Virus record (IMG/VR): IMGVR_UViG_3300025646_000023
Origin: an uncultured virus (IMG/VR IMGVR_UViG_3300025646_000023)
Taxonomy: Duplodnaviria > Heunggongvirae > Uroviricota > Caudoviricetes
Reading direction: 5' to 3' (one strand)
Length of the DNA stretch: 20,000 nucleotides
Shown: positions 442-18,022 of the stretch, piece by piece
Layout of the letters: each line of letters opens with the position of its first letter
How positions within the stretch are numbered: position 1 is the stretch's first letter
Position numbers and translations under genes: made by a program
Notes under the pieces: model-generated
What the model saw: the letters and a program-made list of their open reading frames with translations, nothing else
The model's database searches: none
Told to the model about the DNA's origin: nothing

Positions 442-863
442 CGCTCCCTTCGGTCGCTAAGTGTGGAGTTTGATGCTCCCTACGGTCGCAAAGTGTGAGA
501 GTAAGAGAAAGATTCTGTATGAAATGTTGTATTAAATATTGTATTTTATGCGAAGGATGAGCGCTCCCTCCGGTCGCTATAAACCGGTGGACAGTTACAA
601 CATCGTACACTCTAACTGTCGAACAGTTTACAGTCTCTTTTTACCTTTTTTTACTCACTCATCCCCGCTTTCTCACCCTATTTCCCCTAGATCCACTGCG
701 CCGCAACGCTTCTCAACCTCATTTCGACCAGGAGTTTTGTGCGGTTTTGGGGCTGCGAAAATTTCCAAATGTGGAAAACTTGACGGGTTTTCCAAACTTA
801 TTGAATTGAATACTCTTTTAATAGGGATTTCAGCTGCAGCAAGTACCGCTTCCTTCGGTCGCT
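442..863 (-). repeat. Four dispersed 15-nt repeats GCTYCCTNCGGTCGC (minus strand GC-GA-CC-GNA-GG-RA-GC) at 443-457, 475-489, 563-577, 848-862
   Basis: Read directly: gctcccttcggtcgc, gctccctacggtcgc, gctccctccggtcgc, gcttccttcggtcgc. Confidence 0.9.
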
Positions 864-1357: not shown

Positions 1358-1428
1358 GCTGTGATGCCCTTACAGCCTCATCTGATTGCCTCTCTCAACG
1401 TTTACCGTCACTTCCACCACTGTTTAAC

Positions 1429-1650
1429 ATGTCACTTCTCAACAACATCCTCAAAGTCACTTTCGTTGGAGCTGCTGTTGTCGGCAGCACTGTCGCTTAT
1501 GCTCGTCTCAGTGATGAGCAGAAGGATAAAGTTCAACAAGGTATGAATAAGCTACGCCGCAAAGTAGCTGACTTCATTACTCCAGATGATGGAGTTTATA
1601 CCTTACCGAAAGAGATCGAAGAAGAGCTCAATGCTCTGATCACCGAGTGA
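1429..1650 (+). CDS. hypothetical protein with N-terminal TM helix, 73 aa
   Basis: ORF track; hydrophobic VTFVGAAVVGSTVAYA; fits gene tiling. Confidence 0.75.
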   Translation: MSLLNNILKVTFVGAAVVGSTVAYARLSDEQKDKVQQGMNKLRRKVADFITPDDGVYTLPKEIEEELNALITE

Positions 1651-1700
1651 TGGTCACCCGAAGGGAAGCTTGCTTCCTTTCCTGTGATCTTCATGATCAC
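1649..1700 (+). promoter_or_regulatory. putative RNase III-type processing hairpin A
   Basis: Lower stem GGUCAC(1652-57)/GUGAUC(1684-89), upper stem AAGGGAAG-CUUG-CUUCCUUU; alternative 3' hairpin GUGAUC/GAUCAC(1695-1700). Confidence 0.6.
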
Positions 1701-1720
1701 ATCATTCCTACTTTCACACC

Positions 1721-1945
1721 ATGGAATCTTTCATCTACGCCAAGGACAACGATGGTTATCTCGTCACCATTCGCGGTGACTTTGCAGAGATGACCAAGGT
1801 TGACCTGGATCGACATGTCTCCAAGTACATTCGCTTGGAGGCTCCTGTAGAGCATATCCGCTCCTCTGTCAAGAAACTCATTAGCCAGGGATACAAACTG
1901 AGTAATCAGTTGGAACTAAGCTGGCAGCATTTCATTGACGCATAG
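1721..1945 (+). CDS. hypothetical protein, 74 aa
   Basis: ORF track; TTTCACACC-ATG leader; its stop codon lies in stem II of the hammerhead. Confidence 0.75.
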   Translation: MESFIYAKDNDGYLVTIRGDFAEMTKVDLDRHVSKYIRLEAPVEHIRSSVKKLISQGYKLSNQLELSWQHFIDA

Positions 1946-2015
1946 AACGAAACCAGGGGGCAGCCACCGCTCCCTCTGGTCGCTCCCTGACATGGGGAGC
2001 CTGATGAGTTCCTGC
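1940..2015 (+). ncRNA. type II hammerhead self-cleaving ribozyme; predicted cleavage after GUC, at C1981
   Basis: Stem II GAAC(1945-48)/GUUC(2008-11); GAAA 1949-52; stem III ACCAGGGGG(1952-60)/CCCUCUGGU(1972-80); C17 at 1981; stem I GCUCCC(1982-87)/GGGAGC(1995-2000); CUGAUGA 2001-07. All core nucleotides canonical; intergenic. Confidence 0.9.
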
Positions 2016-2021
2016 TTTGCC

Positions 2022-2276
2022 ATGAAGAACACCCGCATGTTCAGCGTTATCGACGCCCATCGTGAATGCTTTCCTGCATACATCGCAGTGATGTTAGGCA
2101 CCAGCCTTGGTTTCCTTGGCTGTATAGGCCTTAACAAAGCAATTAACCACAGAGTATTAGCAACTTGTAACCGCAACTTACATCAAGTTGTGTCTATTAA
2201 AACAGTCGTAGGTGATAGCTACGGCTGTGTATCTCGGATGGTTGTAAGTGGGCCTTCCGCTTCGCTTAAACCATGA
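2022..2276 (+). CDS. hypothetical membrane protein, 84 aa (MKNTRMFSV...)
   Basis: Internal ATG of track ORF 1935..2276, just downstream of the ribozyme; TM segment YIAVMLGTSLGFLGCIGL. Confidence 0.7.
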   Translation: MKNTRMFSVIDAHRECFPAYIAVMLGTSLGFLGCIGLNKAINHRVLATCNRNLHQVVSIKTVVGDSYGCVSRMVVSGPSASLKP

Positions 2277-2335
2277 GAAAGATTTTATTTGATTCATTGA
2301 TGTTAACCATCATTTTCCTGTTCTTTTGTCTCTAA

Positions 2336-2608
2336 ATGGAAGACCTAATGTATGCCCACGATGACGTGTGGCTTCTTCTCCACTGCCTTCCGACAATGCG
2401 CTATGCAAAGGAGGAAGATACAGAAACTTGGAGAAAGTTTCAAGAACTAGTATCCGATGAGACTGCCAACGGCTATTCACCTCATTGGAACGTGGAGTTT
2501 ACCCTCACCAAGATGGCAAACGACATTGGTTCTTACAAATTACTTCTGAACATCTGGCTCCAGGTGGATGAAGTAATGACTGATCTTCTCAATCCAATTG
2601 ACAAATGA
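2336..2608 (+). CDS. hypothetical protein, 90 aa
   Basis: ORF track; ATGA overlap with the next gene. Confidence 0.75.
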   Translation: MEDLMYAHDDVWLLLHCLPTMRYAKEEDTETWRKFQELVSDETANGYSPHWNVEFTLTKMANDIGSYKLLLNIWLQVDEVMTDLLNPIDK

Positions 2609-2847
2609 ATTACACCTTCTATCTACCAGGCGTCAACAAGCTGACTGGCCTTAGCCAGGAGGATTGGGACTTCCTGTCTGAGCGTGCAAAGGAGAACAAT
2701 GTTCTACCTGCAACGCTTGCCGCCAGGATCATTTCTAATGAGCTGGCACAATGGCGTGATGAGATCCATTACGCCAACATCATGGAGGAAGAACAAGCTA
2801 ATCGAGAGATGAAACTTGAGAAGCTTGTTGAGGAATCCATGCAGTGA
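2605..2847 (+). CDS. hypothetical protein, possible ribbon-helix-helix-like DNA binder, 80 aa
   Basis: ORF track; 'LSQEDWDFLSERAKENNVLPATLAARII' resembles the two RHH helices (inference). Confidence 0.7.
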   Translation: MNYTFYLPGVNKLTGLSQEDWDFLSERAKENNVLPATLAARIISNELAQWRDEIHYANIMEEEQANREMKLEKLVEESMQ

Positions 2848-2899
2848 TTTCTGCACTTTCCCATCAGCAATGATGGGTTTCTGCAGGATTCATTCCTGC
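2845..2899 (+). promoter_or_regulatory. putative RNase III-type processing hairpin B
   Basis: Lower stem UUCUGCA(2849-55)/UGCAGGA(2882-88), upper stem CCCAUCA-GCAA-UGAUGGG; alternative hairpin GCAGGA/UCCUGC(2894-99). Confidence 0.6.
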
Positions 2900-2925
2900 T
2901 TTGTACACCTACCTTGACATTCACC

Positions 2926-3354
2926 ATGTCTAGCTTCAATAACGGCACCATCATCGGCACCATCGTCTCTGACATTGTGGTGAAGAATCCTACCGATTCA
3001 CTTTCCGTGACTGAGTTCCGTATTGCACCTTCCAATGCGAAGGATGATGACTCTCCGATCCCTGTCGTTGCTTACAACGGCGTGGGTGAGCGCATCAGCC
3101 AGCGCATGAACAAAGGTGACACTGTTGGTCTGGAGTATCGCCTCCGCTACAACACTTGGCAGGACCAGGAGGGCAATCCTCGTGGTCGTATGGAAGTTGT
3201 TGTGACCAGCTGTGACATGTTACGCCTTGGCAAGATCTCCACAGCACAGCGCACTGCTGAAGCTGCTGGTGTCATCGAAGCCAACGGTGGACTGAAGAAG
3301 CAAGTGGCACCTGGTTATAGCCAGGAACCTACTGCTGAAGTAGTTCCTTTCTGA
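2926..3354 (+). CDS. ssb: single-stranded DNA-binding protein (bacterial-type OB fold)
   Basis: N..IIG start, 'KGDTVGLEYRLRYNTWQDQEGNPRGRMEVVV' SSB signature, C-terminal ...EVVPF tip. Confidence 0.9.
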   Translation: MSSFNNGTIIGTIVSDIVVKNPTDSLSVTEFRIAPSNAKDDDSPIPVVAYNGVGERISQRMNKGDTVGLEYRLRYNTWQDQEGNPRGRMEVVVTSCDMLRLGKISTAQRTAEAAGVIEANGGLKKQVAPGYSQEPTAEVVPF

Positions 3355-4106: not shown

Positions 4107-4850
4107 ATGAAACTTCCAATGATTGCTTTTATCTCCACGGCTCTGGGCATTACTGCTGCTGTTGGCGTTAGCTCTGTCACTCAGATGATCTCTGATCACA
4201 AGCAGCAGGAGCAACAGATCCGCTCATACATGTATGCACAACCACTGGCACAAGCAACGGGTGATCCCACCAAAGTTGTCCCGCCAGGTGCACTACCACT
4301 GGATGCAACACCTGAGCCAGGTTCAACTCCAGAGCCAGGCTCAGCAAGACCATGGATTCAACTCAAGCTTGATTCCTTGGTACCTCGTGCTATTGCACGG
4401 CCCTCTGCTTATCTTGTACTGAAACGTACAGACAAGACCATCAAGAGCACCAAAGATCCAGTATGGACCTTGGAATTAGTCTCCAGTGATGGTCAAGTCC
4501 TAGATCAACTTCCTGCATTAGTAGGACGTTCCTATCGGCAGACTGCAAACCGCAACACAGCAGGTAACAAATCGCCACTACCCATTGGTAACTATGCGAT
4601 TGACCGCTACGGCATTGCAGCTGCACCTTTCGATGATCCGGAACTCGGTAAAGGTTACTGGGTTCCGGTCACTCCACTCTTTAATACCAACCGATCTGCC
4701 CTTGGCTTTCACCAGGATCCATCCTGGGGTAAGAACAATGGCGAATCAGGTACTTCAGGTTGCATTGGACTGGAATCTGCAGACGCAACTGTAAAGCTTG
4801 TGACGTGGATTAAACAGTTCAATGTTCAACGACTTAATGTTCAATCCTGA
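4107..4850 (+). CDS. membrane-anchored L,D-transpeptidase family (YkuD-like) protein
   Basis: N-terminal TM, PEPGS x2 linker, 'PLPIGNY', catalytic-type 'LGFHQD...GTSGCIGL' (H...GC) motif. Confidence 0.8.
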   Translation: MKLPMIAFISTALGITAAVGVSSVTQMISDHKQQEQQIRSYMYAQPLAQATGDPTKVVPPGALPLDATPEPGSTPEPGSARPWIQLKLDSLVPRAIARPSAYLVLKRTDKTIKSTKDPVWTLELVSSDGQVLDQLPALVGRSYRQTANRNTAGNKSPLPIGNYAIDRYGIAAAPFDDPELGKGYWVPVTPLFNTNRSALGFHQDPSWGKNNGESGTSGCIGLESADATVKLVTWIKQFNVQRLNVQS

Positions 4851-6070: not shown

Positions 6071-6367
6071 ATGTCTTACAACATCCTTGAGATCAATGAC
6101 TTCCATAGCCTGATCTACGCCATGGAAAAGAGAGTTAAGCAACTCCTCATTGATGATCAGAGAAAGCCTGAATGGAAGGCTGAACCGTACTGGTCTATGG
6201 AGATCATCGAAGATGAGATCCTGCCAGCACTGGAGAAGTACCTTGCAGTCTGGGATGACGATCCGACTCCTCAGTATCTGTACGACAACGATGGAGGTGA
6301 GCCTCCCATCAGTGCAGCGGAGCGTCACCAGGCTGCATGGAAGCAGCATCAAGAGATGCACTCCTGA
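6071..6367 (+). CDS. hypothetical phage protein, 98 aa (...DPTPQYLYDNDGGEPPISAAERHQAAW...)
   Basis: Internal ATG of track ORF 5999..6367 after a TTTGCACAT leader. Confidence 0.8.
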   Translation: MSYNILEINDFHSLIYAMEKRVKQLLIDDQRKPEWKAEPYWSMEIIEDEILPALEKYLAVWDDDPTPQYLYDNDGGEPPISAAERHQAAWKQHQEMHS

Positions 6368-6383
6368 CTTCCGTCTAAACAAC

Positions 6384-6422
6384 AAGGGTGCTAGTACACA
6401 TCTACTAGTGCCCTTTCCTTTT
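6384..6422 (+). terminator. 13-bp hairpin with pyrimidine tail (terminator or processing site)
   Basis: AAGGGUGCUAGUA(6384-96)/UACUAGUGCCCUU(6403-15) followed by UCCUUUU. Confidence 0.55.
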
Positions 6423-6432
6423 CCTCAACACC

Positions 6433-6561
6433 ATGGCTAACAAAGACAAAGTATTAACGGACATTCGTGGAGGCAATAAATCTATTCCTCTCAAGCGTCA
6501 ACGTCCTAAATCCAAATCCAATTTTGCATTAATCAAACAAACCAATACCAAATCTAATTAG
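6433..6561 (+). CDS. small basic protein, 42 aa (MANKDKVLTDIRGGNKSIPLKRQRPK...)
   Basis: ACACC-ATG leader; stop 2 nt before the next ATG; translated by hand. Confidence 0.6.
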   Translation: MANKDKVLTDIRGGNKSIPLKRQRPKSKSNFALIKQTNTKSN

Positions 6562-6563
6562 CC

Positions 6564-6902
6564 ATGACTAAGAAGAAGAAATCTGGTCGTCAAGAAACCT
6601 TGCCTGTCAAGGATTACGACACCAAGATCAAATACATCATGGATCATTTCAACTTCACCAAGGTCCATGATGCAATGCTTGCTCTGGACTGGAAGTGGCA
6701 ACATTCAAATGATCTAGAAGATCAAACTACTCGCGTTCCAAACATTGAACGCATCAAAGAGACTGCCCGTTATCTTCTCTATAAAGCAGCAACAGAGAAG
6801 GAACGCCACTGGGGAACAGGTGGTTTTGAAACCAGACGTTTTATGTCGGGTGAACTAAGCCTCATGTTTGTCCTTGCTGAATACCACTCTTGTAACGATT
6901 AG
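6564..6902 (+). CDS. hypothetical phage protein, 112 aa (IMDHFNFTKVHDAMLALDWKW...GTGGF)
   Basis: ORF track; motif I recall from phage hypothetical proteins. Confidence 0.8.
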   Translation: MTKKKKSGRQETLPVKDYDTKIKYIMDHFNFTKVHDAMLALDWKWQHSNDLEDQTTRVPNIERIKETARYLLYKAATEKERHWGTGGFETRRFMSGELSLMFVLAEYHSCND

Positions 6903-6913
6903 TCTCCAGAACA

Positions 6914-7114
6914 ATGTTTAAGATCCTTCAAACAGTCCATCACAATGATGGCAAAGATCCACATCGAACTTGGTATACAACAGAAACTAACTTATATACA
7001 GCTTTAGATCTAGTTGAAGAATATAATCAACGTAATCACCAAAGTAATCAAGATGAAAGCAAGATACCAATCACTTATCACATTGAGTACGCACCAGAAC
7101 TAATGAATGGCTAA
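6914..7114 (+). CDS. hypothetical protein, 66 aa
   Basis: ORF track; tight tiling. Confidence 0.7.
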   Translation: MFKILQTVHHNDGKDPHRTWYTTETNLYTALDLVEEYNQRNHQSNQDESKIPITYHIEYAPELMNG

Positions 7115-7448
7115 CCATCCTCAGTTCTTTATCCATCGCAACAAGAACAAATCTCTCATCATCAAAACCATGAACAACATTGAATGGGAATCCAACGACA
7201 ATGCCAAGGATCTCAGCAAGACTGATGCACCAACCATGCGTCAGTTGGCTGGGATGCAACTTGTCGCCAGGATGAAAGAAGCAGCAGACAAAGCAGGTGC
7301 TGGCTTTGTTGGTGGCTTCATTGATGAGAATGGTAATCGCTTCATGATGTCAAACATCAGTGAAGATGATATCCAAACTCAATACATCATGGAAAAACTA
7401 GATGAATATAAGCGTGAACTAGAAGAGGATGCACCAGACTGGAAGTAA
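7107..7448 (+). CDS. hypothetical protein, up to 113 aa
   Basis: ORF track; overlaps the previous stop; an alternative start at the internal ATG (MNNIEW) is possible. Confidence 0.75.
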   Translation: MANHPQFFIHRNKNKSLIIKTMNNIEWESNDNAKDLSKTDAPTMRQLAGMQLVARMKEAADKAGAGFVGGFIDENGNRFMMSNISEDDIQTQYIMEKLDEYKRELEEDAPDWK

Positions 7449-7466
7449 GCCTACCTTACTTCAGTT

Positions 7467-7790
7467 ATGTACAACGTCTGGAATGCAGCTGCCTATGAAA
7501 TAACGAACATCCTCATCGAATACAAACGTTCTTTAGAACTTAATCCTTTTATCAAAGCTATCCGTCTCCATTGCTTCCCAGACTGGGTGGCATGGAAGAC
7601 AGAACGTACCATGAAGAACGTTGACAAACAAATTGCAAAGCTCCAAGAGCAGATGCAAATTGAACATGATAAGAAATATGTAACACCTATCATCAGGGAA
7701 CACAAACCTGATGAATCCAAGGCGCAACAGCTACTTGGCGGTACATTACAAATCACAGCACCCTGGTACAAACCAGAACCTAAAGAGTGA
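7467..7790 (+). CDS. hypothetical protein, 107 aa
   Basis: ORF track; short coiled-coil segment. Confidence 0.75.
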   Translation: MYNVWNAAAYEITNILIEYKRSLELNPFIKAIRLHCFPDWVAWKTERTMKNVDKQIAKLQEQMQIEHDKKYVTPIIREHKPDESKAQQLLGGTLQITAPWYKPEPKE

Positions 7791-7805
7791 TTCCGTGTAC
7801 ACTGC

Positions 7806-8090
7806 ATGAACCTCTATACCTTCGCCGTCAAGACAATGAAGATGCGTCAATCGCCAGCTGATCAGAAACAAGAACAATTTGTTGAAGCATTACGTAATGT
7901 CCATTTCAAAATTACGAACCTCCTTGAGGATCCTCTCTTTATTGATAGTATTCACGGCGAACAAGAGATGGGTCTTGACCTGGCTCTTGACCTCATTGAC
8001 AACATCATTGCTCGCATCGAAATCAAGGACACCCAGCCTCAAGCTAACTTGATGGATCAACTGGAACGTACTGCAGTCGATGCAACCTGA
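7806..8090 (+). CDS. hypothetical protein, 94 aa
   Basis: ORF track; tiling. Confidence 0.75.
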   Translation: MNLYTFAVKTMKMRQSPADQKQEQFVEALRNVHFKITNLLEDPLFIDSIHGEQEMGLDLALDLIDNIIARIEIKDTQPQANLMDQLERTAVDAT

Positions 8091-8213
8091 GACTCATAAG
8101 AATCAGTTACATGTAACGTACGAACAGTCCACTCCAGGCTGTGATCCTAAACTACTTCAGCCGTGGTCCTCCTGTATCTGCAGTTGGATCACGGTCTTTT
8201 TGCACACAATCCA

Positions 8214-8603
8214 ATGTTCTCACCATCTGAATACCTCACAAATCTCAGGCAGATCAGTCTCCTCAATGGCCTCGTGACGCCAAGGGGACAGATGCCTGCC
8301 ATCCCTCCAATCCCTCAAATGAATGTAGGGCCTGGAATCCCTGTTGTTGCAACGGTTCCGCCAGCTGGTGGAGAATGTAACGACATGATTGGATTCCTTG
8401 CTACCTCATCTCTTGGCCTCAAGATTGCAGCCATCGTTGGTACTGCATTGATTGTTGCCTACTTTGTCAAGAAGTATGGCAAGACAATCCTTACTGGCCT
8501 ACGTGGCAAGATCCAACAGATCCTTGCTTCCATTGAGAACAAGATCCGCAAGCAACGTACTGTTTACCTGCTTGCTCCTGCTCCATCGATGGTGATCGGC
8601 TGA
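8214..8603 (+). CDS. hypothetical membrane protein, 129 aa (MFSPSEYL...)
   Basis: Internal ATG of track ORF 8163..8603, after hairpin 8161-8194 and TTTGCACAC; TM segment IAAIVGTALIVAYFV. Confidence 0.75.
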   Translation: MFSPSEYLTNLRQISLLNGLVTPRGQMPAIPPIPQMNVGPGIPVVATVPPAGGECNDMIGFLATSSLGLKIAAIVGTALIVAYFVKKYGKTILTGLRGKIQQILASIENKIRKQRTVYLLAPAPSMVIG

Positions 8604-8872
8604 TGGTTTACAGAACCAAGGCACATCATTTCTACAAAGGCAATGCCAAGTTTGCCCGCACCAAACAGTTTTGGACTGTATGGCGCAAGGTACGGATGGT
8701 CATTGGCATCATCTATGACAGCTGCTCAGTCATCTTGGTACTCATGAGTCTTGACAAGATTTATAAGTTCAAGAGCTGGCGCGTTGTCAAACCATGGCAA
8801 ATCGCTACCCTTGTGGAACGCATTCCAAAGCTGTTCAAAACCTTAAGACACCACTTCACTTATGGGATCTGA
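8603..8872 (+). CDS. basic hypothetical protein, possible membrane protein, 89 aa
   Basis: TGATG coupling with the previous gene. Confidence 0.65.
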   Translation: MVYRTKAHHFYKGNAKFARTKQFWTVWRKVRMVIGIIYDSCSVILVLMSLDKIYKFKSWRVVKPWQIATLVERIPKLFKTLRHHFTYGI

Positions 8873-8936
8873 CCCTCTCCAGTAGGACCAAACCGATAGG
8901 AAAAACTTAAGGTTACCTTCACGTTTGCTTATCGAT

Positions 8937-8984
8937 CCATTGCTACGCTAGTTTGCCTACAAACCCTGTCGTAGCAATGGTTTT
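8937..8984 (+). terminator. probable intrinsic terminator
   Basis: CCAUUGCUACG(8937-47)/CGUAGCAAUGG(8970-80), inner GUUUG/CAAAC stem, then UUUU. Confidence 0.55.
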
Positions 8985-9057
8985 CACTTCTACACAACAC
9001 CGTACTTGGACAGGTTTGTGCCCTCGATAATTAATTACCGGATGGAAAATATCTCCC

Positions 9058-9225
9058 ATGGAATCCAATATGAACACACAAGGAAAACTGGCTTGGGCAA
9101 TCCTTGCTCAACGACCTGACGGAAAGAGCGAAGTCATTAAGATCACTGATCACGAAGAAGCTGATCAGGCTGTCAAAGAAAACCCCACTCTTTGGTACAA
9201 GAGCGGTCCATTTGTGTTAATCTAA
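9058..9225 (+). CDS. small hypothetical protein, 55 aa (MESNMNTQGKLAWAILAQRPDGKSEVIKI...)
   Basis: Translated by hand, ATG 9058 (or 9070) to TAA 9225; globular composition. Confidence 0.65.
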   Translation: MESNMNTQGKLAWAILAQRPDGKSEVIKITDHEEADQAVKENPTLWYKSGPFVLI

Positions 9226-9280
9226 GTCCACTCCGGGGATCATCCTCGTCACTGATCCCTGGGGAACCTAACCAAACCTA

Positions 9281-9490
9281 ATGAAACTTCCCGTGACTGC
9301 TTACATCGTCATGATGCACCATGCTGATGTAGGTACTTTTGCTCCTGCTTTCCCAAACCTAGACGATGCCATTGAGTTCTCCAATGCCATGCGTCTTATC
9401 AATGATCAACTGTGTGTAGCAGAACCAGTCCCCCTGGTATCAACTGTGTCGCCAGGTGTAAGCAAAGTTATGGACTGGGTTGATCACTGA
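9281..9490 (+). CDS. hypothetical protein, 69 aa
   Basis: ORF track. Confidence 0.7.
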   Translation: MKLPVTAYIVMMHHADVGTFAPAFPNLDDAIEFSNAMRLINDQLCVAEPVPLVSTVSPGVSKVMDWVDH

Positions 9491-9513
9491 TTACGACAAA
9501 AGAAAAGAGTAAG

Positions 9514-9548
9514 AATCTGTGTTATCTTGTATCGAGGTAACACAGATT
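9514..9548. promoter_or_regulatory. 11-bp inverted repeat directly upstream of the RHH-like gene (operator or terminator)
   Basis: AATCTGTGTTA(9514-24)-N13-TAACACAGATT(9538-48); ATG at 9553. Confidence 0.55.
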
Positions 9549-9552
9549 TTTT

Positions 9553-9801
9553 ATGGCAGTCGTACTATCCGTTAGTATCCCAGATGATATGCACTCCAGG
9601 TGGAAAACATCTGGACTTGATATTAGTCCTAGTGCAATCTTTCAAAACGCACTTGAGTCTCAACTTACAGAAACAAATCAACAGCTAACTTACTGGAGCA
9701 ACCGTGCATTAGCTGCTGAAAAGAAATTGAAAACCATTGAGAAGTTACTACTTGCCAATGATAAAGAAATTAAGAAGTTCCTTTACTTTGATGAGATGTG
9801 A
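9553..9801 (+). CDS. ribbon-helix-helix (CcdA-like) DNA-binding protein, 82 aa
   Basis: 'LSVSIPDDMHSRWKTSGLDISPSAIFQNALESQL' matches the beta-strand/helix/helix pattern of CcdA-type RHH; C-terminal coiled coil. Confidence 0.65.
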   Translation: MAVVLSVSIPDDMHSRWKTSGLDISPSAIFQNALESQLTETNQQLTYWSNRALAAEKKLKTIEKLLLANDKEIKKFLYFDEM

Positions 9802-9865
9802 TTCTCCTTACATCTCAAACCAACATTGTTCGGTAAGCTACAATGAACAATAAATAACAAGGCAC

Positions 9866-10048
9866 ATGTCCGATAGGTCGTACCTTACTCTTACTGACGA
9901 TCAACGTCTTGATATTGCAAGCCTCTTGACGACCTTGAAAGGTATGGGTATCGTCCGTAATGAAACAGATTTCCAGCGGTTTATCTCTGGTTGTTTCTTC
10001 CGTGGTCTTTACGAATACAAAAAGGATTTATCCCGTAATGACTGCTAA
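9866..10048 (+). CDS. hypothetical protein, 60 aa
   Basis: ORF track. Confidence 0.65.
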   Translation: MSDRSYLTLTDDQRLDIASLLTTLKGMGIVRNETDFQRFISGCFFRGLYEYKKDLSRNDC

Positions 10049-10077
10049 ACTGTTTCAACGACACGCACTCAACCAAG

Positions 10078-10641
10078 ATGCAAAAGGAATTTGATTCCGT
10101 CGATCTCGACAAACTAAACAAGATCCACTCTGCTATTGGTTTACCTGATAAACCTGAAGGATACGTAGAAGATAAAGACGACGAGATTATCGAACCTGAT
10201 GTGGCTCGTGAATGTGGTGAATGCAACCTATGCTGCCACGGCTGGTTATATGCTGAAGTCTTTGACCAGGTTCTAACCTATGGTTCACCTTGCCATTATG
10301 TTGGCTGTAATGGATGCACCGTTTACGAACAACGCCCTGAAGATCCATGCCGCGTTTACAAATGCGTCTGGCTCCAGGATGGAACGTTCCCTGAATGGAT
10401 GAAGCCTAGCCAATCAAAGCTGATTGGTAGCTGGCGTAAGTGGAAACATAACGGCGAGCTAGAAGATTACATTGAAGTATGTGAATGCGGTGACATTATT
10501 CGAGGTCGTGATCTTCAATGGTTGATCACTGCATCCAAAGAACAAGAACTGAACATCATGTATATGGTGGACGGTAAGCGTTATGCAGCAGGTAGTGATG
10601 CATTCGTCAAATGGTTTGAAGAAGATTTCGAGTGGCTATAA
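10078..10641 (+). CDS. CxxCxxCC (YkgJ-like) Fe-S/zinc-chelating protein
   Basis: CGECNLCC, PCHY...GCTVYEQRPEDPCRVYKCVW cysteine pattern. Confidence 0.8.
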   Translation: MQKEFDSVDLDKLNKIHSAIGLPDKPEGYVEDKDDEIIEPDVARECGECNLCCHGWLYAEVFDQVLTYGSPCHYVGCNGCTVYEQRPEDPCRVYKCVWLQDGTFPEWMKPSQSKLIGSWRKWKHNGELEDYIEVCECGDIIRGRDLQWLITASKEQELNIMYMVDGKRYAAGSDAFVKWFEEDFEWL

Positions 10642-10694
10642 ACAAACTATTAAGACAATATAAATAACTTAATAAATAATTAAATCTATTTGAA

Positions 10695-10732
10695 GAGGCT
10701 GGCAGTACTACTGACTAGCCTCATTTTATTTT
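10695..10732 (+). terminator. intrinsic terminator
   Basis: GAGGCUGG/CUAGCCUC stem with inner CAGU/ACUG, followed by AUUUUAUUUU. Confidence 0.65.
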
Positions 10733-11016
10733 GCAAACAAATCTCAAAAACATTCCCCTTGGAGAACGGCCCACCGCCACGTAAGAATATTAGATATATA
10801 CATAACAATATAACTAACAATAGATACATATGTACCAATACATACTCCAATACATACCCCACCTAATAGATAAAAAAATGGACCGGGCACCACCCCAGTC
10901 CAATTCCTACTTTGCACACACAGCCTTCAGTATTCCTTTCTGAAGCTGCATTGCCAGTCTAGAGCGCCGCCGCTAGTATTTGCAAGCAAACGGCGCAAAT
11001 CCATTGCACACGTACC

Positions 11017-11442
11017 ATGCCCTTTCAATTCCAACCTGTTCAGCTCCTTGAACTCTCAGAAGCTGACGCCCCTTCCATCGATGTTCAAGATGGAAAGATG
11101 ATCCTCACTGCACAACGTGGTAACGAGCAGATCCGTATCACTGCTCCTCTACATCACGTCATGCCCCAGGTCAAGGCAACTGAAGTCAAGATGCCAAAGA
11201 CCCGACGCAAAGGTGTCCCACTTCCTGGTGGTGATAAGCGCGTTGGTGAACTCAACGGCATGGCTAAGCTCAATGAACAACACGTCCGTGAGATCCGTCT
11301 CATGATGAGCGATCCAAAATTTATGGCCAGCTTTCCTTCCAAGCAAGCAATGCTAGAAGAGATCTCAAAAGCTTATGGCGTTCACGTGGCAACCGTCAGG
11401 AACGTCATTGAAAACGTCAGCTGGAAGCACGTCAAGATCTGA
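11017..11442 (+). CDS. DNA-binding protein with the C-terminal HTH typical of phage HNH endonucleases, but no nuclease domain
   Basis: 'GELNGMAKLNEQHVREIR...ISKAYGVHVATVRNVIENVSWKHV'; no H-N-H motif upstream. Confidence 0.7.
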   Translation: MPFQFQPVQLLELSEADAPSIDVQDGKMILTAQRGNEQIRITAPLHHVMPQVKATEVKMPKTRRKGVPLPGGDKRVGELNGMAKLNEQHVREIRLMMSDPKFMASFPSKQAMLEEISKAYGVHVATVRNVIENVSWKHVKI

Positions 11443-11834
11443 TGGAAAAAACGTACAGTATCTTGGTTCAGTTCGGAGATGGCAAACCCATGCCATCTAA
11501 GATCAGAGCAAAGAATGGAATTGATGCACAAGATAAAGCACTTGCTGCTAACCCTGGTGCACGTTCCATCCGCGTTACTGGTGTCTTAGATATCCATCCA
11601 CCTAAGGCACCACGTATTGCCAAGACAAAGCCCAAGGAGCCTGAGCATCCATTGTTTACTGATGTTGATCAGGAAACAATGAATAGTTATCTCAGGTCTT
11701 CTCCTCAAGAAAGTAAACTACAGGTTTGCCACCAGCTCAGGAGAGCAGGTCTCACCTATAAAGCAATTGCTCGGCAGTTGGGTATGGGTGAAACAACAGT
11801 CAGAAGTTGGATTAAAAACACACTTACTTCTTGA
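11442..11834 (+). CDS. helix-turn-helix DNA-binding protein
   Basis: C-terminal 'LRRAGLTYKAIARQLGMGETTVRSWI' HTH; TGATG-coupled. Confidence 0.8.
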   Translation: MEKTYSILVQFGDGKPMPSKIRAKNGIDAQDKALAANPGARSIRVTGVLDIHPPKAPRIAKTKPKEPEHPLFTDVDQETMNSYLRSSPQESKLQVCHQLRRAGLTYKAIARQLGMGETTVRSWIKNTLTS

Positions 11835-11871
11835 CATCTAGTAGTAGTATAAAGCAGCGTTAGTTGCTTTT

Positions 11872-12078
11872 ATGGAAACCTGTAGTGAAGATGGTCTCAC
11901 CGTTACCTTTAACGATGAGACCAATATTTTTACGTTTGAATGGGATGAAGAAACCCATCCAGAATACAACTTTCTTAAAGATTTGACCGGTGATGATTTT
12001 GCTACCATGATGCGCGAGTACCTTGCTACTTTGGATACCCCAACCAATGGCTCCCAGTCTGCCTCCAGTCCTGCCTAA
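11872..12078 (+). CDS. small acidic hypothetical protein, 68 aa
   Basis: ORF track. Confidence 0.7.
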   Translation: METCSEDGLTVTFNDETNIFTFEWDEETHPEYNFLKDLTGDDFATMMREYLATLDTPTNGSQSASSPA

Positions 12079-12367
12079 GTTCAAACCAGGTGATCGCGTA
12101 GCAGAGCGGCCTAAAGCTTCTCTGCTTTCTGCGGTGCGCACTGAAGTAAGAGAATCAATCAAACAATACACAACTCACAGACGTGGTGTTGTGGTTGATA
12201 ACACAATCAAAGTTCTTACTTCAAGGAATGGTCGAACCAGTAGGGTTTGTTATGTCAGTATCCTTTGGGATGGATTGAAAACTCCTTCTCAACATTCACA
12301 GATGCGCATCTGTTTGGAGTCTGAATATGAAAAACTCCGTGAAGATTACTATTCACTAATGGAATAA
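12047..12367 (+). CDS. SH3/KOW-like small beta-barrel protein (FKPGDRV...ILWDG), paralog 1
   Basis: Internal ATG of track ORF 12023..12367; FKxGDRV motif. Confidence 0.75.
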   Translation: MAPSLPPVLPKFKPGDRVAERPKASLLSAVRTEVRESIKQYTTHRRGVVVDNTIKVLTSRNGRTSRVCYVSILWDGLKTPSQHSQMRICLESEYEKLREDYYSLME

Positions 12368-12372
12368 ATCAC

Positions 12373-12705
12373 ATGACACATCCAATCATCCCATCTGCTA
12401 ATCTCATTCTCCAGTGGCGTGCACAATGGCAGAATGATAACGAAGAAATAGAACTAACTAACTTGATTTACCAAGCTGCTCGCTGGGGTGCTGATCAGGA
12501 ACTAGAAGCCTGTTGTGATTGGTTAGAAAGTAACCAAGCTGTAGATCCAGAAGAAACTGTAGAAGGACTTTACGATGAACGTCGTGGTAACTGCTTAACA
12601 GTTAAAGAGCAGGCGTTACACGCTCTTGAAGTTTTAGTAGAAGAAGGACTTGATAAAAAGTCTTACGACGTTATTCTTGATGCTCTTGAATCTTTACCCG
12701 ATTAA
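12373..12705 (+). CDS. hypothetical phage protein (AARWGADQELEACCDWL motif), 110 aa
   Basis: ORF track; motif I recall from cyanophage hypothetical proteins. Confidence 0.8.
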   Translation: MTHPIIPSANLILQWRAQWQNDNEEIELTNLIYQAARWGADQELEACCDWLESNQAVDPEETVEGLYDERRGNCLTVKEQALHALEVLVEEGLDKKSYDVILDALESLPD

Positions 12706-12725
12706 AACCATCACAACCAACAACA

Positions 12726-12983
12726 ATGAGTGGTAAAGCTAGGCGTGAATTTAAGGTTGGTGATCGCGTTAAGTATAACAAAAAAGGAATGTCAGGTCCT
12801 CTCTCACCAACAAGCAAACCTCACACAGTCTTCCCCAGTCGCTTAGGTGAAGTAACCGGAATCTTTATTAAAGAAGATAGCAAAGGTTACAAACGTAAGT
12901 GGATTCAAGTACTCTGGGATGGTGCCGTCCGTTCTAGTGATCACGCTAGTCAACGTTTAGTTTTTGAAAATGAGGAATGCTAA
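12726..12983 (+). CDS. SH3/KOW-like small beta-barrel protein (FKVGDRV...VLWDG), paralog 2
   Basis: ORF track; similar to 12047..12367. Confidence 0.75.
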   Translation: MSGKARREFKVGDRVKYNKKGMSGPLSPTSKPHTVFPSRLGEVTGIFIKEDSKGYKRKWIQVLWDGAVRSSDHASQRLVFENEEC

Positions 12984-13637
12984 ATGAGCATTGTTGAACT
13001 CATCTGGAGAACGCCAGATGCAGAAGCTTTAATTACAAAGATGGCTCGTGTCTCTGCGCCAGCTAACGAAAATAACATGGAGACAGCTCCTAAGTTGTTA
13101 CGTTATCTGATTAAGAATGCACACTGGTCGCCATTTGAAATGGCAAACATGTGCGTAGAAATCCACACAACTCGTGCTATCTCTGCTCAGATCTTACGCC
13201 ACCGCTCATTTTCATTCCAGGAATTTAGCCAGCGCTACGCAGATATTAATCTGCTTGGTTCAACCTATGTTCCTCATTTACGTCGTCAAGATCTAAAGAA
13301 CAGACAAAACTCTGTTGATGATCTTGATGCAGAATTAACTGGTCAATTTTACAGGCGTATCAGTACACTCTTTGAAGAGAGTGAACATCTTTATAAGGAG
13401 ATGGTAAGCAAAGGTGTTGCTAAGGAATGTGCTCGTAGCATTCTTCCCCTTGCATCTCCGACTCGTTTATACATGAATGGTTCCTTACGTTCCTGGATTA
13501 CTTATCTATCTCTACGTGAGAAGAATGGTACTCAAATGGAACACATGCAGATTGCAAAAGATATTAAAACGATCTTCTGTGGGCAGTTCCCCATCATTGC
13601 AGAGGCCCTGGGCGGCAGCGACCCCTGGGAGATTTAA
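12984..13637 (+). CDS. thyX: FAD-dependent thymidylate synthase
   Basis: HWSPFE, 'QILRHRSFSFQEFSQRY' ThyX signature (RHRx7SxR), 'ECARSILP', 'TQMEH'. Confidence 0.97.
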   Translation: MSIVELIWRTPDAEALITKMARVSAPANENNMETAPKLLRYLIKNAHWSPFEMANMCVEIHTTRAISAQILRHRSFSFQEFSQRYADINLLGSTYVPHLRRQDLKNRQNSVDDLDAELTGQFYRRISTLFEESEHLYKEMVSKGVAKECARSILPLASPTRLYMNGSLRSWITYLSLREKNGTQMEHMQIAKDIKTIFCGQFPIIAEALGGSDPWEI

Positions 13638-13664
13638 TATAGATGCTTCCTCCAGGGGCAGCCC

Positions 13665-13820
13665 ATGGATGACGACAGCCTGAAGACAGCTGCTCTTGCA
13701 GCTTGGTTAGACATTGTTTACGGTGGACAGGACATGCGAGAGTACACCTACTCCCTGCGTGTTATCCGTCGTGCAATAGAGAAAGTACCAGAACATATAA
13801 AGATTACAGAATCTGATTAA
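13665..13820 (+). CDS. small hypothetical protein, 51 aa (MDDDSLKTAALAAWLDIV...VIRRAIEKVPE)
   Basis: Translated by hand; resembles the C terminus of 12373..12705. Confidence 0.65.
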   Translation: MDDDSLKTAALAAWLDIVYGGQDMREYTYSLRVIRRAIEKVPEHIKITESD

Positions 13821-13877
13821 CTGCCTGGGCATCCTTTGGAGTAAGTCCCAGGCTTTGTTGTATTTGCACACACCACG

Positions 13878-14819
13878 ATGGACAACACAACCCAAAACAA
13901 ACTACCAAAGGTTCCTGAAAAAGCGCTTGAAGCTTTGAAGGCTGGTATTCAATCTGTTCTTGACTCGAAGGATTGGATTGGTTTTCTTTCTGCCATCAGG
14001 CAGATCCATGATTACAGCTTCAATAACAAGCTCCTGATTATGCTTTCGCAACAGAAGCGTGGCTGGCCGTTCAGCCCACTTGTTGCAGGCAGGAGTAAGT
14101 GGAATGAGAAATTTAATCGGCAGCTTAAGGAAGGAGAATTTACCAAACCGATTTGGATTCTTGCGCCAGTCCTTATTGACAAGCGCGACGAGAACGGCAA
14201 TGTCATTCGGAAGTCGGATGGCACGCCCGAGAAGCTTGCTATTCGGTTCCGTGGAGTCAAGGTTTACGACCACCATCAAACCCACGGGGATCCAATCCCC
14301 GAACCAGATACCTCCACGATGTTAGCCCAATTGGATCAGAATGCTCCGGCTGAAGTGCTCTGTGGCATGTATGGTGTTGCAGAACGTCGCTCTGTTCAAG
14401 TCCTCACCATTGGTGAACAGGAACTAGGTAGAGCACTAGGCCGCTGCTGGTTTGAAAATAGTGGTCGCGCCAGTAGAATTGAACTGCGTAGTGACCTGAA
14501 CACTGCAACCATGATCAGTGTCCTGGCCCATGAGCTAGGCCATGCCATCCTTCACAACCGTGATGAGTACCAGGAGCATGACTCGTCCTCGATCAAAGAA
14601 CTTGAAGCAGAGTCAGTCGCGTATCTTGTTTGTTCTTATTACGGTTTGGATCTTGGTGGTCGTAGCTTCCAGTACATTGTTCATCACAACGTTGCGTCTG
14701 ATGATGTCGTAGCTGACCTACTCAAGTCAGGTGATCGGATCTTCCGTGCTTACCAGGAGATCATTACAACTGTTGATCAGTTAGTTCACCAAGAAACCAA
14801 ACAGCTTCTTGCTGCTTGA
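13878..14819 (+). CDS. ardC: ArdC-like antirestriction protein: ssDNA-binding N-terminal domain plus zincin metallopeptidase-like domain
   Basis: 'HDYSFNNKLLI..Q', 'W...R..K.GE', 'F....VYD..QT.G' ArdC-N motifs; HELGH and 'ELEAESVAYLVC..YGLD' zincin motifs. Confidence 0.85.
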   Translation: MDNTTQNKLPKVPEKALEALKAGIQSVLDSKDWIGFLSAIRQIHDYSFNNKLLIMLSQQKRGWPFSPLVAGRSKWNEKFNRQLKEGEFTKPIWILAPVLIDKRDENGNVIRKSDGTPEKLAIRFRGVKVYDHHQTHGDPIPEPDTSTMLAQLDQNAPAEVLCGMYGVAERRSVQVLTIGEQELGRALGRCWFENSGRASRIELRSDLNTATMISVLAHELGHAILHNRDEYQEHDSSSIKELEAESVAYLVCSYYGLDLGGRSFQYIVHHNVASDDVVADLLKSGDRIFRAYQEIITTVDQLVHQETKQLLAA

Positions 14820-14925
14820 GTTAAGAGCTAAGCCGTGTGTGGAACCACGGCTTTCTCACTCTCTCAGCTTGGACCAAGCCTCTCGGAGCAAGGTCTTAAC
14901 CGCAGCTAAGATGCGGGTAACGCCC
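14820..14925 (-). ncRNA. candidate small structured RNA or multi-hairpin intergenic element
   Basis: GTTAAGA(14820-26)/TCTTAAC(14894-900) encloses AAGCCGTG/CACGGCTT and GCTTG/CAAGC; CCGCA/TGCGG (14900-16); minus-strand TATACT at 14935-30. Confidence 0.35.
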
Positions 14926-14959
14926 ATGAAGTATAAAGGGCAACAGAATTTTACCACCA

Positions 14960-15256
14960 ATGAAAGGCTTTATCGCCACGAAAGAACAACAAAAACAAGC
15001 AACCTATTGGATTGCTTGCTATGCCAAGAATAATGAGGATGAACCTATTGGTGTCACTAAAAAACTAATCACTTACAAACCAGGTCAAAGTAAAGACAAA
15101 GCAATCCTCAAGTACTGCACAGAACTTATGCAGCTCAACCGCACCATCTGGGAAATCCTTGTTCATCAAGGTCCAGACCAAGTGCCAGAGCACGGCGACC
15201 AGATTACACATCGTCTCAGCCGTGAGCGCTTCCAGGGCTCGACAACCAAGATTTAA
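14960..15256 (+). CDS. hypothetical protein, 98 aa
   Basis: ORF track. Confidence 0.75.
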   Translation: MKGFIATKEQQKQATYWIACYAKNNEDEPIGVTKKLITYKPGQSKDKAILKYCTELMQLNRTIWEILVHQGPDQVPEHGDQITHRLSRERFQGSTTKI

Positions 15257-15261
15257 CCTTT

Positions 15262-15267
15262 TATAAT
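15262..15267 (+). promoter_or_regulatory. sigma70 -10 box upstream of the large ncRNA candidate
   Basis: Perfect TATAAT; the structured region begins 6-7 nt downstream. Confidence 0.55.
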
Positions 15268-15272
15268 TTCTT

Positions 15273-15517
15273 TGGTTCTGCAGACCACACCAGTGGCCAC
15301 TGGTTACTCATCCAAGCGGATGATCGCCGATATCACAGAGTGGAAGCTGTGATGTCAGACAACGATGAAGCAACGAGAGGAGTAGGGGCCGACCCCTACT
15401 TAATATCCGTGAACGGGATCCTCTCTAGCTTCAGAGTAACCCGCCAATTTGGATTGGACGGTACTGTTGACCGCGATACCGAAGCCACAGCGTAGGCCGG
15501 TGCGCTAAATTCCACCA
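15273..15517 (+). ncRNA. large (~245 nt) multi-helix, pseudoknotted ncRNA candidate of unrecognised family
   Basis: At least 10 compatible helices plus loop GUGGAA(15340-45)/UUCCAC(15510-15) pseudoknot; G-U pairs favour the + strand; lies in a 410-nt gap between longer ORFs. Confidence 0.7.
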
Positions 15518-15665
15518 GTTACGATTTGCTAAAGCTTCTTGCTCCTTAAAATAAGGAACACCCCGATAAGTTAATTGAGTCATGGCTGCTGCCACATACT
15601 CTTAACTATAAGAATTTGTATTAATTACTACAGTTTATACTGCAACACTAAGTCTTAAGTTAGTA

Positions 15666-16205
15666 TTAAGAATTAGAAACAACATCTTGCTCTGTTAATT
15701 GATTTTTCAATTCAGGTTGTCCAGAAACAACTAGATCATAGTGATCCTGGCTAAAGCAGATTCCACTATAGTCTTTAGCTACACAATGAGGTTCAACACC
15801 GTTGAGCCATTTCTGAACTGATAAAAACACGCCGCCACCAGGTCCAATAACAGCGCCATGTTTATTGTTTGGTTTAACTCTAATCACATGGCCACGTGCT
15901 TTACATACTCCCGATTCATCAACTTCTAATTCTTCATCTGAGTGTAGATACTTTCCTTCAAAAGAAAACTTAATATGACCACCTAGATAAACTTCATAGC
16001 TATCAACATTTGGGTGAGTATGTTCAGGAATAATTACACCTTCCGGTACAGAAAACATCTGTACTTGATAAGGTGCTTTCCTATAAAGCAATGTTGAAGT
16101 AACTTCTCCGATCTTCCATACACTATTTGCTTTTGGTACTGCCCAGGTACACGGCATTTCTTTTAGCACATACTTTAAAAAAACTGACAGATCGTCGATC
16201 TTCAT
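15666..16205 (-). CDS. cupin-fold protein
   Basis: 'IPEHTHPNVDSYEVYLGG' cupin motif 1 (HxH...E) and 'IRVKPNNKHGA' motif 2; AT-rich and opposite in orientation to its neighbours. Confidence 0.75.
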   Translation of the reverse strand: MKIDDLSVFLKYVLKEMPCTWAVPKANSVWKIGEVTSTLLYRKAPYQVQMFSVPEGVIIPEHTHPNVDSYEVYLGGHIKFSFEGKYLHSDEELEVDESGVCKARGHVIRVKPNNKHGAVIGPGGGVFLSVQKWLNGVEPHCVAKDYSGICFSQDHYDLVVSGQPELKNQLTEQDVVSNS

Positions 16206-16235
16206 CTTTAAAGATTAAAACTTTATAGGTACTAT

Positions 16236-16343
16236 AACGGGGCGCAGCCGCACCAATGAGGGCACGGCTGTTCAGTTACCAGCAGAAGGAAACCACAAAA
16301 ACTTCTGCTCCCCAGGCCTGACGTGGTTCTTCTTCGGCCCGTT
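16236..16343 (-). ncRNA. candidate ~108-nt pseudoknotted RNA (sRNA or 5' leader of the cupin gene)
   Basis: Terminal helix 16338-43/16236-41; stems 16302-09/16281-88, 16318-21/16272-75, 16261-70/16245-54; pseudoknot 16323-29 with loop 16290-96; internal G-U pairs favour the minus strand. Confidence 0.55.
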
Positions 16344-16352
16344 GTTATAATA
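16343..16352. promoter_or_regulatory. bidirectional -10 element: + strand extended -10 TGTTATAAT, minus strand TATTAT
   Basis: TG-N-TATAAT at 16343-51; the reverse complement reads CTATTATAAC; lies between divergent units. Confidence 0.6.
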
Positions 16353-16381
16353 GGTTCTATGTGCTTTACAAGAACCTTACC

Positions 16382-16612
16382 ATGGCCTTATTATCTAAAC
16401 CAAAAATCATAGGGAGAGTAGCCTGTGATTCCGGTTCAATCGCTCTTGTTGATCCGTCTTATCTCGAAGTATCAGCCACAGATACTGTTCAGCTTCCTAA
16501 CTGGAATCTGTTTACTTCTGTTGATACTGAAGTTGGAGATGGAGAATTTGTTGTCTATGCTCAACGTGACAGCCGTGGCTGCTTGCGTCGTGTCATCATT
16601 GAAATTGAATGA
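16382..16612 (+). CDS. hypothetical protein (DUF4241-like 'VACDSGSIALVDP' motif), 76 aa
   Basis: Internal ATG of track ORF 16361..16612. Confidence 0.7.
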   Translation: MALLSKPKIIGRVACDSGSIALVDPSYLEVSATDTVQLPNWNLFTSVDTEVGDGEFVVYAQRDSRGCLRRVIIEIE

Positions 16613-17490: not shown

Positions 17491-17493
17491 GAT

Positions 17494-17775: not shown

Positions 17776-17776
17776 G

Positions 17777-18010: not shown

Positions 18011-18022
18011 TCCAGTACCAAT

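Follow-up and report, generated by a model that had tools for sequence, protein, structure and literature searches.

A type II hammerhead ribozyme motif between two early genes of an uncultured tailed phage and its relatives

Hammerhead ribozymes flank genes in prophages and are active in vitro and in E. coli, and the paper reporting this proposed that they process long phage transcripts into single-gene messages (PMC3088659, Perreault et al. 2011). Most type II hammerheads in that account have a pseudoknot of at least 4 base pairs (bp) between loop I and the nucleotides (nt) just 3' of stem II. It also describes intergenic hammerheads with core variations in the phages PaP3 and Bcep176 and the halovirus HF2 variant, and in HF2 a mapped transcript 5' end lies within 3 nucleotides of the cleavage site (PMC3088659). 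Here we analyze a hammerhead of this kind in a 20,000-nt stretch of DNA from an uncultured virus (IMG/VR record IMGVR_UViG_3300025646_000023), which we call the window. The element lies at window positions 1945-2011 on the + strand, with every core element present in type II order, and judged by its sequence and that of its relatives it is very probably a selected and catalytically competent hammerhead. Taken as a whole, the likelier account is in our view that a true type II hammerhead cleaves the early RNA between its two neighbours, genes A and B, and we lean with somewhat less assurance towards a processing or boundary function for it.

Type II hammerheads between phage or prophage genes and the idea that they cut transcripts have been known since 2011, to the extent described in PMC3088659. 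What is new here is a family that is missed by Rfam and lacks the pseudoknot, that occupies a single fixed slot, and that in some relatives is split by an endonuclease gene or gives way to a terminator-like hairpin.

Anatomy and fold of the element

The RNA of window positions 1940-2015 (+) reads GCA UAG AAC GAAA CCAGGGGG-CAGCCACCGCU-CCCUCUGG UC GCUCCC-UGACAUG-GGGAGC CUGAUGA GUUC C UGC. Its parts are given below, where conservation refers to 28 distinct sequences from related loci.

1945..1948 (+): stem II 5' strand GAAC, ending in C11.1; pairs with 2008-2011, with 3 of 4 pairs changed on both sides and 99.1% of cells paired
1949..1952 (+): core G12 A13 A14 plus A15.1 (GAAA), invariant in 28/28
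1952..1980 (+): stem III hairpin of 9 bp including A15.1-U16.1 (1952-1960 with 1972-1980), two of the pairs being G-U
1981..1982 (+): predicted cleavage site, C17 (1981) / G1.1 (1982); GUC-G invariant in 28/28
1982..2000 (+): stem I hairpin, GCUCCC 1982-1987 / GGGAGC 1995-2000, 6 Watson-Crick bp and a possible U1988-G1994 pair
2001..2007 (+): core C3 U4 G5 A6 N7 G8 A9 (CUGAUGA), invariant except that N7 is U, C or A in relatives
2008..2011 (+): stem II 3' strand GUUC, starting with G10.1; the G10.1-C11.1 pair forms in 27/28, the exception being locus L144 (A)

The order of these elements is that of a type II hammerhead, with stems I and III closed by loops and stem II open. The core of the hammerhead class is found in full (CUGAUGA at 2001-2007, GAA at 1949-1951 and, at 1981, a C17 that is H17 and not G), as are its three helices in order, supported by covariation, with A15.1-U16.1 formed in 28/28 and G10.1-C11.1 in 27/28 sequences. 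When positions 1936-2019 are folded without constraint the lowest-energy structure is exactly this three-way junction (-36.2 kcal/mol, z -2.9), and only 2/200 shuffles of the same segment fold as well as the native sequence. In stem III 4/9 pairs are changed on both sides and 95.2% of cells are paired, while its apical part has 11 nt in which 3 further pairs are possible. The corresponding figures for stem I are 4/7 pairs and 96.9% of cells. In loop I the second base, G (1989), and the A three bases further on (1992) are conserved, the pattern in the main clade being U-G-N-N-A-Y-G.

An initial annotation of this DNA had described the element as GAAC-GAAA-stem III-GUC-stem I-CUGAUGA-GUUC with stems of 9 bp (III), 6 bp (I) and 4 bp (II) and with G5 at position 2003, and we find all of these parts where it placed them and with those lengths. 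It had also put the stop codon of the open reading frame (ORF) 1721..1945 inside stem II. The two do overlap, but the TAG at 1943-1945 contributes only its last base. A further extension of stem II by GCA(1940-42)/UGC(2013-15) does not hold up as a conserved feature, with 69% of cells paired and the third pair present in 10/28 distinct sequences; on the 5' side it coincides with the wobble base of gene A's final codon.

Our own type II descriptor matches the window at this site only, on either strand. As a control for chance we used 3000 random 20-kilobase (kb) sequences with the dinucleotide statistics of the window, in which a loose form of the descriptor (stems of at least 4/3/4 bp) gave 24 matches and a form with the observed stem lengths (at least 6/4/8 bp) gave 0. 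This statistic is not sufficient alone, as the site was singled out from the reading of very many stretches, and it is the comparative evidence that decides. Descriptors of our own for type I and type III hammerheads found no further match in the window. A core that lacks stem II at 877 (CTGAAGAGAAAG) was considered and rejected, as it matches no descriptor and relatives read CAGG or CCGG there.

Conservation, covariation and the Rfam models

Relatives were fetched with the 74-amino-acid (aa) gene A protein (alignment A2), which gave 57 loci made up of 20 viral contigs and 37 metagenome contigs, some of them the same contig present in both collections. A 15-mer scan of viral contigs gave 120 further loci, but none of these continues into the conserved tail, and they were treated as chance matches and not used. 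A descriptor-positive hammerhead lies directly after the gene A stop in 40/57 loci. A covariance model, R1, was built from the 28 distinct sequences and matches 50/57 loci, 41 of them with a contiguous copy (62-100 bits), 7 with a copy split by a gene and 2 with a copy split by a short insert. The contiguous copies include L155, which is truncated at its contig end, and L144, in which G10.1 has become A. R1 has no match in 7/57 loci: in L146-L151 the slot is filled by other sequence, and the contig of L189 stops at this point.

The 28 distinct sequences were aligned with MAFFT without a structure reference (alignment A4). The invariant columns are C11.1, G12, A13, A14, A15.1, the next C, G-U16.1-C17-G1.1, C-C3-U4-G5-A6 and G8-A9. 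The stems around them vary, stem I occurring in five versions (GCUCCC/GGGAGC, GCCCGU/ACGGGC, GGCCAC/GUGGCC, GACCAC/GUGGUC and GCCAGG/CCUGGC) and stem II in four (GAAC/GUUC, GGAC/GUCC, AGAC/GUCU and AGGC/GCCU). For the hammerhead structure 93.0% of 642 cells are paired, versus 35-56% after a shift of the 3' partners by 1-3 columns, and 13/23 pairs are changed on both sides, with all three stems affected. None of 500 shuffles reaches the observed values for cells paired, pairs with double changes, cells with double changes or the covariation score. RNAalifold independently gives the same junction with 12/21 pairs compensated, and the distant variants L152, L183 and L164, whose stems are entirely different, each have the junction as their lowest-energy fold. 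The check on covariation in related contigs that accompanied the initial annotation is therefore strongly positive, and anatomy and covariation both bear out its description of the site as an intact type II hammerhead flanked by early genes on the same strand.

In the hammerhead class the core nucleotides are fixed and N7 is free. A fixed unpaired core together with a variable N7 and compensated stems is, on comparative grounds, the signature of selection for catalysis, and the presence of such a core and such stems at one fixed position argues that the catalytic fold has long been under purifying selection. No genome has more than one ribozyme, the related records carrying one R1 site each or none, so that the clusters seen in prophages, where several hammerheads flank single genes, have no counterpart here. 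In the window R1 with filters off finds only this site and the next best scores 12 bits. These counts cover R1-like ribozymes; unrelated families would escape the model.

The Rfam models give a different result. RF02276 (Hammerhead_II) does not reach its gathering threshold of 37 bits, and in five related records that carry the ribozyme its three weak matches (9-14 bits) all fall at other places. Weak matches of STnc320 and snoR9 to the window were dismissed as noise. The initial annotation had suggested an Infernal search with the Rfam hammerhead models as its check; this search gave no match, and taken alone it would have led to the finding being wrongly discarded. One testable reason for the miss is that the pseudoknot expected of most type II hammerheads is not there. 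The best complementary run between loop I and the tail has a mean of 2.8 nt, versus 3.4 nt for shuffled loops, and reaches at least 4 nt in only 3/28 sequences; neither a pairing of loop I with the tail nor one with the 5' flank is supported by the complementarity test. As far as sequence can assign it, the element belongs to the hammerhead class and to the type II topology, and not to RF02276 as modelled.

Gene context, ribozyme loss and alternative readings

The genes on either side and the sequence that leads into gene B are as follows.

1721..1945 (+): gene A, 74 aa, from the ORF list; no family assigned (no PHROG match, one sub-threshold Pfam match)
2009..2021 (+): pyrimidine-rich tail UUCCUGCUUUGCC, overlapping the stem II 3' strand and ending at the start codon, read as a gene-start motif
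2022..2276 (+): gene B, 84 aa, with a hydrophobic central stretch, from the ORF list; no family assigned in PHROG and Pfam scans

In two related groups gene A is 88-89% identical and gene B 52-56% identical, and the ATG of gene B at 2022 is the next start after the ribozyme. We propose the following course of events, in which the motif, fold, conservation and covariation are observed and cleavage and its effects on stability and translation are what we infer. Once the ribosome leaves the gene A stop codon, the RNA would fold into the three-way junction and cleave itself between C1981 and G1982, so that genes A and B would have separate messages. The RNA on the gene A side would finish with the stem III hairpin and a 2',3'-cyclic phosphate. 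The RNA on the gene B side would begin at the stem I hairpin, which would bear the 5'-hydroxyl (5'-OH) and lies 21 nt before the start codon of gene B. After the cut only the 4-bp stem II would join the two, so the pieces should part. This would set a transcript boundary and uncouple the fates of the two messages, much as a terminator hairpin or an RNase III site would elsewhere. By analogy it is plausible that the 5'-OH also stabilises the downstream messenger RNA (mRNA) by evading RNase E. RNase E cleaves a 5'-hydroxylated substrate inefficiently and E. coli seems not to phosphorylate the 5'-OH made by a ribozyme, as reported in PMC4191395. The same source describes 5'-end-independent 'direct entry' by RNase E as a major pathway, so the 5'-OH alone guarantees little.

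The tail before gene B looks like a translation-initiation motif of this phage group rather than a part of the ribozyme, because it recurs before other starts that have no obvious Shine-Dalgarno sequence. Its first part, TTCCTGCTTTG at 2009-2019, is found again at 2893-2903 (+) ahead of the SSB gene, and in L146, which has no hammerhead, the motif TTCCTTTGC (at 547, 1146, 1464, 1799 and 2268) lies about 10 nt before five ATG codons. No obvious Shine-Dalgarno was seen by eye at any of the 31 start codons listed in the window. What is conserved after stem II is CUGCUUUGC, or UUUGC in distant groups, and the stem II 3' strand overlaps the motif by 3-4 nt. A pyrimidine motif of this kind suggests a host or an initiation mode that does not use Shine-Dalgarno pairing. 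L170, L173 and L175 have an intact ribozyme whose stem II is separated from the CUUUGC tail by small insertions of 5-13 nt. Within gene B a 26-nt sequence, GTAGGTGATAGCTACGGCTGTGTATC (window 2208-2233, +), is identical in the window, L126 and L122 despite the 52-56% protein identity; it contains a short inverted repeat, and L171 differs there.

The wider context is that of an early region, and it is described by these further genes.

2914-3354 (+): SSB, by PHROG/Pfam
4107-4850 (+): YkuD-domain protein of 247 aa, Pfam YkuD L,D-transpeptidase catalytic domain (E 1.3e-6, above cut-off)
12984-13637 (+): thymidylate synthase, by PHROG/Pfam
18023-19870 (+): family A DNA polymerase, by PHROG/Pfam

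The + strand encodes all four of these as well as the small ORFs next to the ribozyme, so the ribozyme lies on the strand of all its neighbouring genes, about 1.1 kb into a + strand arm that starts at a divergent region. The YkuD L,D-transpeptidase ORF is unusual for an early or replication arm. In the relative G006 (83 kb, 97% complete) the structural and packaging genes occupy one strand up to about 33.9 kb, from where the early/replication arm diverges. The ribozyme comes about 1.7 kb after the start of this arm, and the genome has no apparent phage RNA polymerase. Going by this gene layout, the source is an uncultured tailed phage of about 80 kb with the ribozyme in its rightward early/replication arm, and the 'early polycistronic region' of the initial annotation was a fair description. 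Isolate phages are distant. A blastn search of window 1400-2700 against isolate phage genomes gave no match, and the DNA polymerase is at most 44% identical to that of any isolate phage. The nearest record, G001, is identical to window 6161-20000 but ends short of the ribozyme.

The related loci also show how the ribozyme is lost. The largest insert is a single feature.

L134 1774-2336 = L122 2396-2958: insert of 563 nt in loop I, carrying an HNH gene

It is found in L122-L124 (the same contigs as L134-L136), L137, L138, L159 and L162, where it follows ...GCUCCCUGCUAU and replaces GGGGAGCC, that is the stem I 3' strand and C3, before the sequence picks up again at UGAUGAGUCCC. The product of the gene in the insert (1782-2282 in L134) is about 166 aa long and matches HNH_3 (E 8e-9) and, below threshold, AP2; by this domain content it is a free-standing homing endonuclease. 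The junctions are identical in two different stem III backgrounds, which fits with site-specific homing, and an invariant ribozyme core would make a good homing target. L171 (~1786-1870) and L176 (~1772-1843) have inserts of about 80 nt with two hairpins that are like the 3' untranslated end of the endonuclease insert. In both the endonuclease gene is absent and core bases of the ribozyme are lost; the inserts may be deletion remnants of the endonuclease element. In the hammerhead-less L146 (near-complete record G003) gene B comes directly after gene A, with a 13-bp hairpin and a trailing UUUU in the gap between them, and in L149 a hairpin followed by U6 comes after gene A. These terminator-like hairpins in the slot suggest that the A-B gap is a transcript boundary with or without the ribozyme.

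Several of our results weigh against a hammerhead that cuts the early transcript. No Rfam family reaches its gathering score in the window with Infernal, no Rfam hammerhead family reaches E<=10 on 1850-2100, and RF02276 scores nothing at the hammerhead site in 5/5 related records carrying the ribozyme. The loop I/3'-tail pseudoknot typical of type II was not found in the 28 sequences. A tertiary contact between stem I and stem II is needed for fast hammerhead cleavage at cellular Mg2+. With neither the pseudoknot nor another tertiary contact established, this could be a slow 'minimal' ribozyme at cellular Mg2+. A fifth measure of covariation, further pair types, is reached by 73/500 shuffles. 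One contig, L144, has a changed G10.1. The ribozyme is broken by insertions in 9/57 loci and absent after gene A in six more (L146-L151), and the near-complete records G003 and G004 have no R1 match anywhere. The ribozyme is dispensable, because phages in which it is broken evidently survive. The initial annotation had named, as grounds for abandoning the idea, relatives that keep the locus and lose CUGAUGA. Such relatives do exist, but they lost it through insertions of foreign DNA and not through drift of the core, and this makes the ribozyme dispensable rather than spurious. The L144 copy (1710-1791), in which the change of G10.1 to A breaks the first stem II pair, shows no other difference from L143 and L145; either decay of the copy or an error in sequencing could account for the change.

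These points have to be read together with the other explanations that could be given for the locus. The main rival, which we think unlikely, is a translation-coupled switch in which the ribozyme sets the ratio or timing of gene B expression. Ribosomes on gene A would block folding, the uncut ribozyme would mask part of the gene B initiation region, and cleavage with loss of stem II would unmask it. The arrangement of the locus has features that one would expect of such a switch. A stop codon (UAG, UAA or UGA) abuts stem II or overlaps it by 0-1 nt in 28/28 distinct sequences, the start codon follows within about 10-25 nt of stem II, and the tail (G)UCC-UUUGC / GUUCCUGCUUUGC matches the motif before other starts, so that the stem II 3' strand overlaps this motif. 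Additionally, A7 of the 5' flank is invariant in alignment A4 although the stop codon changes register. However, only 3-4 nt of the motif are paired, its role is itself something we infer, and no Shine-Dalgarno is involved; the ribozyme also persists in L170, L173 and L175, where a short insert separates stem II from the motif, so the two need not overlap. That the element is structured but not catalytic, for instance a protein-binding site, a terminator or an RNase III target, and looks like a hammerhead only by accident is very improbable. This reading would agree with the lack of an Rfam hammerhead match and of a tertiary contact, and with a stem III 15-mer that is shared with four upstream sites that are not hammerheads. 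But it gives no reason why the unpaired core (CUGA-GA, GAAA and the cleavage-site UC) should be fixed while stems and N7 vary, as a mere pair of hairpins would not require this, and at the observed stem lengths the descriptor matched 0/3000 random sequences.

It is a little less probable than the switch, and still unlikely, that the ribozyme is real but without benefit to the phage, either as a leftover or passenger of mobile DNA or as something kept mainly as a homing site. The distribution is patchy, with the ribozyme present where gene A is 50-100% identical to that of the window and absent in others at 44-61%. It has been destroyed in at least 3 different ways by insertions that the genomes survive (2 distinct endonuclease-bearing sequences in 7 loci, L171 and L176), and it stands as a single copy per genome beside repeated 15-mers. 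Against this, eleven core positions are invariant and all three stems show compensation while the flanking proteins have diverged to 50-60% identity, and the intact form is accompanied by no transposase or other mobility gene.

The 15-mer mentioned above is a repeat linked to stem III, and it occurs at these places in the window.

443-457, 475-489, 563-577, 848-862 (+): four copies of the 15-mer GCTCCCTNYGGTCGC in a non-coding leader
1969-1983 (+): fifth copy of GCTCCCTNYGGTCGC, made up of the stem III 3' strand, the cleavage site and the first two bases of stem I

These 5 matches compare with 0.37 expected, and 5 are reached in 0/200 shuffles. Four copies occur in each of G002, G005 and G006, all in a stretch of about 2 kb that leads up to the ribozyme and includes it, whereas the hammerhead-less G003 and G004 have none; a reversed control pattern gives 0. 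The two variable bases are UC, AC, CC, GC, CU or UU. In many cases a complementary GGGGAGC comes before the 15-mer and (G)AAGAGAAAGTTCT comes 10-21 nt after it. A purine-rich (G)AAGAGAAAGWTYT occurs in the window at 504-515, 881-892 and 2274-2285 (+), also after the gene B stop codon, and in relatives it trails many 15-mer copies by 10-21 nt. Its 3 occurrences in the window, against 0.78 expected, are reached by 8/200 shuffles and are not significant in the window alone.

What the 15-mer does has several candidate answers, namely promoters, terminators, protein sites or offshoots of stem III. Hairpin promoters of the N4 type were considered and set aside, as G006 has no giant virion RNA polymerase and its largest ORF, of 903 aa, is structural. 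The idea that each clade has 15-mer copies matching its own stem III was also rejected, since there are none in the distant hammerhead-bearing L143, L182-L188 and L152 within the 1.5-1.7 kb fetched; the repeat is thus clade-specific and not required by the ribozyme. The stem III/cleavage-site module is repeated only in genomes that have the ribozyme or formerly had it. One speculative possibility, to which we give no more weight than to the switch, is that the ribozyme is a node of a clade-specific signal network, its core DNA serving as an HNH homing site and a repeated stem III module marking the boundaries of early transcripts, only one of which would be self-cleaving. The recurrence of the module CC-GCUCCCUNYGGUCGC-U at 3-4 other intergenic points of the early arm suggests recognition by one factor or by the ribozyme RNA. 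If this is true, homing at the core would account for the identical loop I position of the endonuclease gene in two different ribozyme backgrounds.

Comparison with known systems

The 28 distinct sequences make up a well-supported addition to the hammerhead families, and each of the three stems has compensatory mutants that arose in nature. That the curated Rfam models miss it bears on the number of phage ribozymes that may be overlooked by homology scans. The relatives amount to a natural experiment, in which the same gene pair is found with an intact ribozyme, with one split by an endonuclease gene, with a short insert or with a terminator-like hairpin. The 2011 picture of phages placing hammerheads between genes is unchanged.

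In the early transcript of T7, RNase III sites cut the polycistronic mRNA and leave ends that bear hairpins. The hammerhead would likewise be a structured intergenic cut with hairpin-bearing ends, but it would need no host enzyme, would leave a 2',3'-cyclic phosphate and a 5'-OH, and is of a different class. RiboJ-type insulators were engineered from a satellite-RNA ribozyme and place a hammerhead and a hairpin upstream of a coding region. As in RiboJ, the downstream message would receive a defined 5' end that is independent of the preceding transcript, whereas the 5' hairpin is here stem I itself. The GIR1 twin-ribozyme introns, as described in PMC2219692, resemble this locus in having a small ribozyme and a homing-endonuclease gene at one place. 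There the ribozyme serves the endonuclease mRNA, while here the endonuclease gene in loop I destroys the ribozyme. Among the papers listed by a literature search on phage hammerheads combined with homing endonucleases, none was relevant by title or abstract.

The closest systems remain the type II hammerheads of bacteria and prophages (PMC3088659, RF02276). Three short strings from the ribozyme were not found in the 11 text-form supplementary files of that paper, a set that may be incomplete. With the hammerheads as that paper describes them, the present element shares the same permutation, the full consensus core, the intergenic position and the strand of small flanking genes. It differs in that RF02276 is silent here, in having no pseudoknot between loop I and the 3' tail, and in being present as one copy rather than as clusters that flank genes. 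With PaP3, Bcep176 and HF2 it shares the presence of a single ribozyme in a phage intergenic region, and its full consensus core sets it apart from those examples as they are described in PMC3088659.

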